This document shows, one piece after another, positions 1-1,847 of a stretch of DNA of 1,847 nt. The stretch is taken from assembly GCA_000004985.1 (NCBI GenBank), contig GG739315.1; one strand, given 5' to 3'. Position numbers and translations under genes: made by a program. The notes under the pieces are model-generated. The model did not search any database. It was not told the DNA's origin and worked only from the letters and a program-made list of their open reading frames with translations. Numbering within the stretch: position 1 is the stretch's first letter; every line of letters starts with the position of its first letter. The stretch is from Naegleria gruberi. Taxonomy: Eukaryota.

Positions 1-684
1 GAATGGATTATATTCTAATTCCTCTGAAGTTTCCATATTTTTTTGAGAAACTGATCCAGTGGAAAGTGATGGGTTATATTCTACAAATTTTGACGATCCC
101 CAACAGATTTTTTGGGAAGCTGATCCTATACAAACCAGACATTCATGTACAAAATTAAAATCAGTCATTTGTAACAAATTCAAAATCTGACTCTTATTCT
201 TATAATACAAATATCCAAAATCTTTTGTCCATTCTTGAATTGGAGCAATAATATTTACAGGATGAAACAAGGAATCAGTCCAATCCATTCTTCCGTTTGT
301 TTTCTTCAATAATTCTCTAGTATAAAAATCAAGTTTAAAGCCTGGCATTCTTGTTTCGAAATTGGAAATTTCCTCTTCATCAACAGGCTCTTCATTCAGT
401 GCTCTCAGAATAAGATCTTCATCATTCAATTCCTTGAATATAGCCAAAAAGTCTCTCCTCTCCACAGATAGACAAGCCATCCTCAAATCAAGACAAACCA
501 ACTCGATCACCATTCGATGTTTTTCCTCTAAATAACTAATGATCAATTCTAAAGTATCGGGAGACATTAATTCTTTCCATCGGGTTTCAATTGATGAAGG
601 ATTTATATGATAGATACATGATGTTGATGATGATTCATTGTCCTCCTGTTTTTCTGATTCCTCGACTTCTCGTTCCGACAACAT
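1..684 (-). CDS. Protein-coding gene with its 5' end complete (ATG at 684..682) and its 3' end running off the window at position 1. It encodes an F-box-like domain protein. The N-terminal 228 aa read MLSEREVEESEKQEDNESSSTSCIYHINPSSIETRWKELMSPDTLELIISYLEEKHRMVIELVCLDLRMACLSVERRDFLAIFKELNDEDLILRALNEEPVDEEEISNFETRMPGFKLDFYTRELLKKTNGRMDWTDSLFHPVNIIAPIQEWTKDFGYLYYKNKSQILNLLQMTDFNFVHECLVCIGSASQKICWGSSKFVEYNPSLSTGSVSQKNMETSEELEYNPF...
   Basis: I translated the reverse complement by hand, codon by codon. Plus-strand frame 1 (positions 1-3, 4-6, ...) contains no TTA, CTA or TCA triplet from 1 to 771, so the minus frame is open for 228 codons. The first in-frame stop upstream of the ATG is TGA at 774..772, with no in-frame ATG between it and 684. 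The start context is A-rich with A at -3 (atcatcATGt) and has no Shine-Dalgarno. Residues ~36-74 (WKELMSPDTLELIISYLEEKHRMVIELVCLDLRMACLSV) fit the F-box pattern L-P-x-E-[IL]-L-x-x-I-[LF]-S-Y-L-[DE]...V-C. Codon usage (TTG/TTA Leu, AGA Arg, GAA Glu, AAT Asn) resembles Saccharomycetaceae. The ORF track omits it because no stop falls inside the window. Confidence 0.75.
   Translation of the reverse strand, partial: MLSEREVEESEKQEDNESSSTSCIYHINPSSIETRWKELMSPDTLELIISYLEEKHRMVIELVCLDLRMACLSVERRDFLAIFKELNDEDLILRALNEEPVDEEEISNFETRMPGFKLDFYTRELLKKTNGRMDWTDSLFHPVNIIAPIQEWTKDFGYLYYKNKSQILNLLQMTDFNFVHECLVCIGSASQKICWGSSKFVEYNPSLSTGSVSQKNMETSEELEYNPF
463..579 (-). other. F-box-like motif in the minus-strand ORF, residues ~36-74: WKELMSPDTLELIISYLEEKHRMVIELVCLDLRMACLSV.
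   Basis: This is a by-eye match to the F-box consensus (PF00646-type: LPdEil..Il.yLd..dL....VCk.W). The conserved hydrophobic positions are kept: L-x-P-x-x-L-x-L-I-x-S-Y-L, and V-C after a ~10-residue spacer. The usual Trp after V-C-K is replaced here by Leu (VCLDL). No profile search could be run. Confidence 0.45.
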
Positions 685-941
685 GATGATAAAAATCTTC
701 TCCCAACAAATATTTTTTTTGTGTTTAATTTTGGAAAGTTTACAATGTTTAAGAGCAGTGCCAAGTTCTTTTCATGAAATAGCACGTATTGAAATAAATT
801 GGTGTGAATAATGTTAAGTTTGCAAAAGAATATGAAAGTTTAAAAACTAATGAGACACCGTAGTAGAGCAAGTGAATGTGCTACGAAACCAAGATCAGGT
901 TGAACCACATTGCAAATGATTAATTACAAAAAATAGAGTTC

Positions 942-947
942 TATAAT
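942..947 (+). promoter_or_regulatory. TATA-like element (cTATAATtt) about 104 bp upstream of ATG 1051.
   Basis: TATAAT is a 1-mismatch fit to TATA(A/T)A(A/T). The spacing suits a yeast-style TATA-to-TSS distance of 40-120 bp, which would give a short 5'UTR for the plus-strand gene. This is sequence-only evidence with no expression data. Confidence 0.25.
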
Positions 948-989
948 TTCAGCAGTGTTACTTGGCAGCATTATCCAAAAACTGACCGA

Positions 990-996
990 TGACTAA
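990..996 (+). promoter_or_regulatory. AP-1-family site TGACTAA (Yap1-type YRE, or a Gcn4 half-consensus).
   Basis: This is an exact TGACTAA heptamer. Yeast bZIP factors bind TGACTAA (Yap family) and TGACTCA (Gcn4). A single 7-mer in 366 bp of AT-rich DNA has a modest chance expectation, so this is low confidence. Confidence 0.15.
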
Positions 997-1002
997 TTTC
1001 CT

Positions 1003-1010
1003 TATTTAAA
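1003..1010 (+). promoter_or_regulatory. Second TATA-like element, TATTTAAA, 41-48 bp upstream of ATG 1051.
   Basis: TATTTAAA has one mismatch to TATAAAAA-type boxes. If it is used with yeast spacing, the TSS would fall at or inside codons 1-25. In that case translation would begin at the second in-frame Met (1081), which still yields a good signal peptide. The alternative is that this is just AT-rich sequence. Confidence 0.2.
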
Positions 1011-1050
1011 CGTTCTAATATGGACTGATAACGCCAGCCCAGTAAAAAAA

Positions 1051-1134
1051 ATGGCACCACACAAATCTCTGCTCACAACAATGGTCGCCTTAATAGTAGT
1101 TACCTTAATACTCCTCGCCCCATCACTCTATGCC
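1051..1134 (+). other. Predicted N-terminal signal peptide or signal anchor, residues 1-28 (MAPHKSLLTTMVALIVVTLILLAPSLYA). The possible cleavage site is after Ala28, before ND.
   Basis: There is a positively charged n-region (H4, K5), then a ~17-residue uninterrupted hydrophobic stretch (MVALIVVTLILLA), then a small polar c-region (PSLYA with Ala at -1), and then N-D. One N-glycosylation sequon (N-N-T, FNNTAF) lies downstream, which fits a lumenal or extracellular domain. Without a predictor I cannot tell a cleaved signal from an uncleaved type II anchor. Confidence 0.55.
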
Positions 1135-1847
1135 AATGACTTGATTAACGCCAAGCTCGATACTACATATAATGTTAATTATCTTAATACAGAGGCTGAA
1201 CCTTCTGGTACTTATCTTTCATCTGAATACCAATATGATAATGCGTTTGGTCCGGTCACTGTGAATGATAATTTCCAAAACGTTCAAGTATTCTTTGAAC
1301 AACGCTTCAATAATACTGCGTTCGATTTTACACTTTCATTATTATCTGGAAAAGTTCTTCAACCAACAGCAACATTCGGAAAGTTGAAACTCTCAATGAA
1401 GTTGTACAATAATCCTGTGGAGAAGGTTGTGTTGAGATTTAATGCACCTTTGGGTATCTGGAATGTTGACCTGTTGAGACGTATGCAAGCTTACTTTTAT
1501 GATCCTACCACTTATACATCTGAATTAACTGTTCTTGGTGATCAATTTGGTGTCATTAGGAGATATATTAACATGTTTGAAGTTGAATTGAATTTGCCTT
1601 ATATTTTCCAAGCAATTCAAAAGACTGAATTTCAGCTTATTCTCTATACTGAAGACAGTCCTTTGGATCCAACTCCATTAGTTGATTATAGATGGATTGA
1701 AGTACCATATGCTGCATCATATGCTATGAAATTAGAATCAAATCCAAATTTCAATAGATACTTTACAATTGGATTCCCATCTATTACTCCTATTAATTAT
1801 ATGTTGTATCAACCTCCAAGATTCCTTCTTACTGAAGCTTATAATGT
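1051..1847 (+). CDS. Protein-coding gene with its 5' end complete (ATG at 1051) and its 3' end running off the window. It encodes a signal-peptide or signal-anchor protein of unrecognised family: MAPHKSLLTTMVALIVVTLILLAPSLYANDLINAKLDTTYNVNYLNTEAEPSGTYLSSEYQYDNAFGPVTVNDNFQNVQVFFEQRFNNTAFDFTLSLLSGKVLQPTATFGKLKLSMKLYNNPVEKVVLRFNAPLGIWNVDLLRRMQAYFYDPTTYTSELTVLGDQFGVIRRYINMFEVELNLPYIFQAIQKTEFQLILYTEDSPLDPTPLVDYRWIEVPYAASYAMKLESNPNFNRYFTIGFPSITPINYMLYQPPRFLLTEAYN...
   Basis: I translated frame 1 by hand from 1051 to 1845 and found no TAA, TAG or TGA: 265 full codons plus a partial one. The upstream in-frame stop is TAA at 994..996, with no in-frame ATG between 997 and 1050, so 1051 is the first ATG. 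The context aaaaaaaATGG is A-rich with A at -3, which is yeast-like, and there is no Shine-Dalgarno. Residues 9-28 form a hydrophobic core followed by polar ND. A second in-frame Met at codon 11 (1081) would give an even more canonical signal peptide, MVALIVVTLILLAPSLYA. The ORF track omits this gene because it lacks an in-window stop. Confidence 0.8.
   Translation, partial: MAPHKSLLTTMVALIVVTLILLAPSLYANDLINAKLDTTYNVNYLNTEAEPSGTYLSSEYQYDNAFGPVTVNDNFQNVQVFFEQRFNNTAFDFTLSLLSGKVLQPTATFGKLKLSMKLYNNPVEKVVLRFNAPLGIWNVDLLRRMQAYFYDPTTYTSELTVLGDQFGVIRRYINMFEVELNLPYIFQAIQKTEFQLILYTEDSPLDPTPLVDYRWIEVPYAASYAMKLESNPNFNRYFTIGFPSITPINYMLYQPPRFLLTEAYN

Follow-up and report, generated by a model that had tools for sequence, protein, structure and literature searches.

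A divergent F-box followed by a SUKH domain in a Naegleria gruberi protein, a likely SCF substrate adaptor of a lineage-specific family

A segment resembling an F-box is encoded near the start of an open reading frame in the genome of Naegleria gruberi, and it raises the question of whether this segment is a genuine F-box and, if so, to what kind of protein it belongs. An earlier note, made from the letters of the sequence, had proposed a fungal SCF substrate adaptor as the candidate product. The window analyzed here is the whole 1,847-nt stretch of N. gruberi DNA (assembly GCA_000004985.1, contig GG739315.1), whose GC content is 31–38%, and all positions given below refer to it. Its features are as follows.

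1..684, minus strand: 5′ part of the F-box/SUKH gene, 228 codons, based on the stop-free translation, the upstream in-frame stop and the identity to relatives
619..684, minus strand: acidic Ser-rich N-terminal tail, residues 1–22, from direct reading and low pLDDT in the single-sequence model
424..570, minus strand: divergent F-box, residues ~39–87, with predicted helices H1 (42–50), H2 (54–60) and a long H3 (65–87)
121..387, minus strand: SUKH-1 (Smi1/Knr4) domain, matched residues ~100–188, from the Pfam match
3..134, minus strand: diverged tandem duplication with a 66-nt unit, at the C-terminal border of the SUKH region, from the repeat, a shuffle test and the alignment
685..1050, no strand assigned: AT-rich spacer of 366 nt, from the ORF layout, with a GC fraction of 0.31–0.36
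1051..1847, plus strand: neighboring gene, separate from the F-box protein, 265 codons, open at the right end

The minus-strand ORF runs from 684 to 1 through 228 stop-free codons and is open at the left end of the window. The ATG at 684–682 is the first one downstream of an in-frame stop, which sits 29 codons upstream. The public NCBI/UniProt entry for the N. gruberi orthologue (XP_002668908/D2W411) has translation begin at the counterpart of Met40, already within the first residues of the F-box (window nt 565–579). The ENA model, P0015, is 816 aa long and has 32 residues beyond the NCBI one, reading ...TRSRWKELMSPDTLEL. The pentapeptide RWKEL, which precedes Met40, is common to the window protein and P0015, and its conservation favors the upstream start; probably, the start codon of the public orthologue is annotated too far downstream.

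The ORF at 1051–1847 on the plus strand is transcribed divergently from the F-box gene, and its hydrophobic N-terminus resembles a signal or anchor sequence (MAPHKSLLTTMVALIVVTLILLAPSLYA); its product may be secreted or membrane-bound. When scanned against Pfam, this ORF fell into no recognizable family, the best match being KRE1 at E = 0.13. An NCBIfam scan of the window proteins gave nothing, as expected for a eukaryotic protein. The spacer between the two head-to-head genes presumably holds both promoters and 5′ UTRs; neither a tRNA nor an Rfam match was found in it. An A/T homopolymer run lies at nt ~711–720 of this spacer.

Residues 36–74 of the minus-strand ORF (nt 579–463) read WKELMSPDTLELIISYLEEKHRMVIELVCLDLRMACLSV, and the peptide quoted in the earlier note, LMSPDTLELIISYLEEKHRMVIELVCLDLRMAC, is present exactly within them. 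When the whole ORF was scanned with Pfam, F-box models were absent at E ≤ 10, and a phmmer search of the whole ORF against the PDB returned only noise. For the isolated segment (residues 33–99), the sole matches among 24,736 Pfam models were F-box and F-box-like: the F-box model (PF00646) aligned through positions 4–40 of 43 to residues 40–76 (nt 567–457) at E = 0.074, a hit whose 13.5 bits nevertheless lie under the cut-off of 20.5, and F-box-like (PF12937) followed at E = 0.37 with 11 bits (cut-off 24.3). Pro42, L45, L47, I48, L52 and V63–C64 of the F-box signature are present. The Leu of the L–P pair is Ser41, and the usual Trp is Leu67. As a reading of the sequence, the earlier description is correct.

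An exhaustive phmmer search through 1.84 billion representative sequences found 13 relatives of the protein. A word-indexed homologue search with either the window protein or the family alignment returned nothing and so missed the 75%-identical N. gruberi protein that the collection contains. The closest relatives are P0001 (784 aa, 75% identical) and P0002 (801 aa, 52%), and the second N. gruberi model, P0015, is likewise 75% identical to the window protein; the others share 27–38%. Their alignments start at the motif or before it. By exact look-up, the relatives come from N. gruberi, N. fowleri and N. lovaniensis, and the remainder are metagenome sequences. The named ones are XP_002668908/D2W411 of N. 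gruberi (“predicted protein”), XP_044559622 of N. fowleri and, in N. lovaniensis, three proteins whose automatic names are “F-box domain-containing protein” (one) and “DUF4116 domain-containing protein” (the others). Contrary to what had been supposed, the gene is thus not fungal: it belongs to a heterolobosean amoeba, as the 75% identity to XP_002668908 and a set of relatives made up only of Naegleria and metagenome proteins indicate. The GC content of the window also fits such a genome. These relatives are already in databases and are essentially unannotated, and the literature search found no paper on Naegleria F-box, SUKH or DUF4116 proteins.

Evidence for the F-box becomes strong at the level of this family. 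The motif segments of 14 proteins were aligned (alignment A2) into a 59-position profile, and each member was scanned with Pfam. Seven of the 14 segments match F-box (best 2e-5) and seven match F-box-like (3e-5), with F-box_4 matching three (best 1.1e-6) and F-box_5 four of the 14. Searched against the PDB, the family profile finds the F-boxes of TIR1 (E = 1.1e-7), COI1 (5e-4) and FBXO42 (1.6e-3), followed by lower matches to FBXL3, KDM2B, beta-TrCP, FBXW11, FBXW7, FBXL17 and FBH1; every one of the best 13 matches is an F-box aligned in the correct register. To control for circularity, the profile was rebuilt from 11 distant paralogues with the lineage of the window left out, and the TIR1 F-box was still found at E = 9.3e-8. 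Residues 36–74 of the window protein score 29.7 bits against the 11-paralogue HMM, a value equaled by none of 2,000 shuffles (maximum 11.7). A profile made from the window protein and its two closest orthologues has a sole PDB match, the beta-TrCP F-box, at only E = 0.7, so the F-box of the window lineage is more divergent than those of the paralogues. Taken together, these results identify the motif as a genuine, if divergent, F-box, with homology established at the family level from sequence profiles.

Two columns of the family alignment deserve mention. At the position of the usual Trp, the paralogues have L, F, Y or W, and Trp is retained in P0010 and P0012. All 14 family members have the Arg of the F-L-D-x-x-D-R motif, which is Arg57 in the window protein (nt 514–516; column of R28 in alignment A2). 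This invariant Arg follows the F/Y-L of helix H1 by four residues, a place where most F-boxes have Leu. It is also present in TIR1 (DKDR) and COI1 (PKDR), which are the best sequence matches of the family F-box profile, and the F-[IL]-x-D-x-x-D-R motif in common accounts for TIR1 being the top match. The likeness is confined to the F-box of ~40 residues; TIR1 and COI1 are hormone receptors with leucine-rich repeats after the F-box.

Structural modeling agrees with this assignment. A single-sequence AF2 model was uninformative (pLDDT 37). With a 14-sequence alignment (A1), the best model reached a mean pLDDT of 67, and 74–91 over the motif. The three-helix fold for which the earlier note had proposed a check is found in it, with helices at residues 42–50, 54–60 and 65–87, the third being long. 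In a Foldseek search of the PDB, rank 1 was the cryo-EM SKP1–FBXO3 complex (E = 0.18, probability 0.85, 141 columns), followed by dozens of Skp1-bound F-box chains at 0.7–1.3 Å over 32–37 residues, and then by the Knr4 core; with 0.18 as the best E-value, there was nothing at E ≤ 0.001. Such weak E-values are unsurprising because the domain has only 40 residues and the model is of medium quality. The modeled F-box superposes on Skp1-bound F-boxes at about 1–2 Å.

What follows the F-box had been described as about 150 visible residues with no obvious WD40 or LRR domain, which would have placed the protein among the poorly characterized “other” class. The count is right, as ~154 residues lie between the motif and the end of the window, but the residues after the F-box match a SUKH-1 domain. 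SMI1_KNR4/SUKH-1 (PF09346) matches residues ~100–188 of the window ORF at E = 2.7e-4 (22.0 bits, cut-off 25.4) through profile positions 1–83 of 125, and the domain probably runs on to about residue 205. The cut-off is passed by the paralogues P0003 (32.1 bits) and P0005 (26.0 bits), and 12 of the 14 family members match at E < 0.1 (best 1.5e-7). A motif L-R-E-F-L-x-x-T-N-G-R ... H-P-x-N ... W is conserved in the SUKH part of the family. The alpha+beta SUKH fold is present in the model, where it resembles Knr4, YobK, Lin2918 and FBXO3 by structure search; a sequence search of the PDB with a SUKH-only profile gave nothing significant.

At the C-terminal edge of the SUKH region, the window protein has an insert of about 22 residues (SLSTGSVSQKNMETSEELEYNP) just before the conserved YNPF, which by alignment is absent from P0001 and P0002. 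A 15-nt direct repeat at 3–17 and 69–83, identical at 14 of 15 positions and spaced by 66 nt, marks a 66-nt duplication whose two copies share 29 of 66 positions without gaps, an identity equaled in 23 of 10,000 shuffles. The duplicated peptides (ORF residues ~184–227) are GSASQK...VEYNP and GSVSQK...LEYNP. An unspliced intron was considered as the cause of the insert and rejected: there is no in-frame GT...AG interval of suitable length, and the insert copies the preceding 66 nt.

Furthermore, the relatives carry DUF4116 repeats past the SUKH domain. The full-length relatives (784–925 aa) continue into arrays of DUF4116 (PF13475) with as many as 15 stretches and E-values between 1e-47 and 1e-122; for example, the orthologues P0001 and P0002 have six (1.5e-47) and eleven (4.8e-67) stretches, respectively. 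In P0001 the repeats begin near residue 235, past the end of the window. An alpha-solenoid is predicted for DUF4116 in the sole modeling study mentioning it (PMC8078820). Paralogues with the F-box–SUKH–DUF4116 order number at least three in N. lovaniensis, including the near-duplicate pair P0009/P0018, with one each seen in N. fowleri and N. gruberi. The presence of several paralogues within Naegleria points to a lineage-specific expansion.

The N-terminal tail is a different matter. An acidic Ser-rich stretch ahead of the motif is there as reported (EREVEESEKQEDNESSSTS, residues 4–22), and the tail of residues 1–22 is probably disordered in view of the model. Its sequence is unconserved apart from acidity: the N-terminus of P0015 is acidic but different, and it has no Ser cluster. 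The consensus of CK2 is S/T-x-x-D/E. The Ser cluster SSSTS (residues 18–22), once regarded as a set of CK2-type phospho-acceptor sites, is followed by C-I-Y-H with nothing acidic downstream; the consensus fits only S3 and S30, and the N-terminus of the N. gruberi orthologue has no such site, so the CK2 suggestion finds no support.

The order of an F-box and then a SUKH domain has known counterparts. FBXO3 of human, SKIP16 of Arabidopsis and CEHC1 of Chlamydomonas start with an F-box and a SUKH domain and are SCF components or Skp1 interactors. These F-box–SUKH–ApaG adaptors and the window protein have a like front end, whereas the Naegleria relatives have no ApaG/DUF525 and their C-terminus is a DUF4116 array. 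Sequence similarity to FBXO3 is insignificant, and the Naegleria family consists of multiple paralogues found so far only in Naegleria and metagenomes. The SUKH fold is shared with Smi1/Knr4 and with bacterial SUKH-1 immunity proteins (YobK 2PRV, Lin2918 2ICG, 3D5P, 2PAG); those occur as stand-alone proteins or in toxin–immunity loci, whereas in the window the domain follows an F-box within a single eukaryotic polypeptide. Fusions of F-box and SUKH-4 in filamentous fungi (Zhang et al., 2011, PMC3113570) are an independent precedent for a SUKH domain behind an F-box, although the domain in the window best matches SUKH-1 and its host is a heterolobosean. It has been argued that SUKH fills the position of substrate recognition in F-box–SUKH proteins (Zhang et al., 2011, PMC3113570).

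From this architecture, the protein is likely a lineage-specific F-box–SUKH–DUF4116 substrate adaptor of an SCF ligase. The F-box would dock on Skp1–Cul1–Rbx1, and the protein destined for ubiquitination would be held by the SUKH domain, probably aided by the DUF4116 solenoid. The 3′ part of the gene, past the window, would carry its own DUF4116 array by analogy with the orthologues of 784–816 aa. Thus, the F-box and the adaptor role of the earlier proposal stand, while the fungal origin, the domain-less C-terminus and the CK2 sites do not.

Other explanations can be weighed against this adaptor reading. The likeness to an F-box could be coincidental, produced by an amphipathic helical segment with no homology to F-boxes, as the sub-threshold E of 0.07 for the window sequence by itself and the uninformative single-sequence model might suggest; this is extremely improbable given the transitive profile match at E = 1e-7, the top 13 PDB matches being all F-boxes, the failure of 2,000 shuffles to equal the window score against the paralogue profile, the consistent lists of structural matches, and the N-terminal place of the motif ahead of SUKH, as in FBXO3. 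A more serious doubt is that homology may have outlived function. Some F-box proteins function outside SCF complexes, and the F-box of the window lineage may have decayed and ceased to bind Skp1, leaving a non-SCF role such as that of a scaffold made of SUKH and DUF4116 and capped by N-terminal helices. This would fit a window sequence that by itself stays under the Pfam F-box threshold, an orthologue-trio profile that barely detects F-boxes, the changes of the L–P Leu to Ser and of Trp to Leu, and the NCBI model of the N. gruberi orthologue beginning at a Met within the motif. However, the segment has hardly changed between the window protein and its N. gruberi orthologue even though the two are 75% identical overall, a contrast suggestive of constraint; Pro42, the hydrophobic residues of H1 and H2 and the V–C pair are retained; the model superposes on Skp1-bound F-boxes at ~1 Å; and among the paralogues, P0010 and P0012 keep the Trp and matches to F-box models reach 1e-5 to 1e-6. 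Decay is therefore rather unlikely, and the adaptor role is preferred.

Or the protein may be the Naegleria orthologue of FBXO3/SKIP16 with the same specific function. The order of F-box and SUKH-1 is identical in both, and the FBXO3 lineage has been described as an ancient one with a wide distribution among eukaryotes (Zhang et al., 2011, PMC3113570). When the family profile was aligned by hhalign with the FBXO3 sequence (validated against 9kbd_C), the SUKH start fell in the correct register with FBXO3 residues 115–150, but with a probability of only 4.6% (E = 0.0087, 36 columns). FBXO3 is absent from every sequence-profile search against the PDB, ApaG/DUF525 was found in none of the 10 relatives scanned, full-length or partial, which have DUF4116 repeats instead, and many Naegleria paralogues face a single-copy FBXO3. 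Orthology was rejected as undemonstrated on account of the weak hhalign result, the missing ApaG and the multi-paralogue family, and it is given very little chance beside the lineage-specific adaptor. A further idea concerns the targets of such an adaptor. Bacterial SUKH proteins neutralize polymorphic toxins by binding them, and the amoeba is bacterivorous; it is therefore imaginable, as a long shot, that Naegleria built SCF adaptors from a bacterial-type immunity domain and DUF4116 which catch toxins or effectors of ingested or intracellular bacteria for the proteasome in a ubiquitin-based anti-effector defense.

The general understanding of F-box proteins is unchanged by this locus, and the result is a sensible annotation that would not surprise a specialist. 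It gives a domain-level annotation to Naegleria proteins labeled “predicted”, “hypothetical” or “DUF4116 domain-containing”, including a protein of the pathogen N. fowleri, and, beside FBXO3/SKIP16 and the fungal SUKH-4 fusions, it is a third, independent case of a SUKH domain placed after an F-box. For the DUF4116 repeats, it offers a first functional handle, as they are likely to be part of an SCF substrate receptor.
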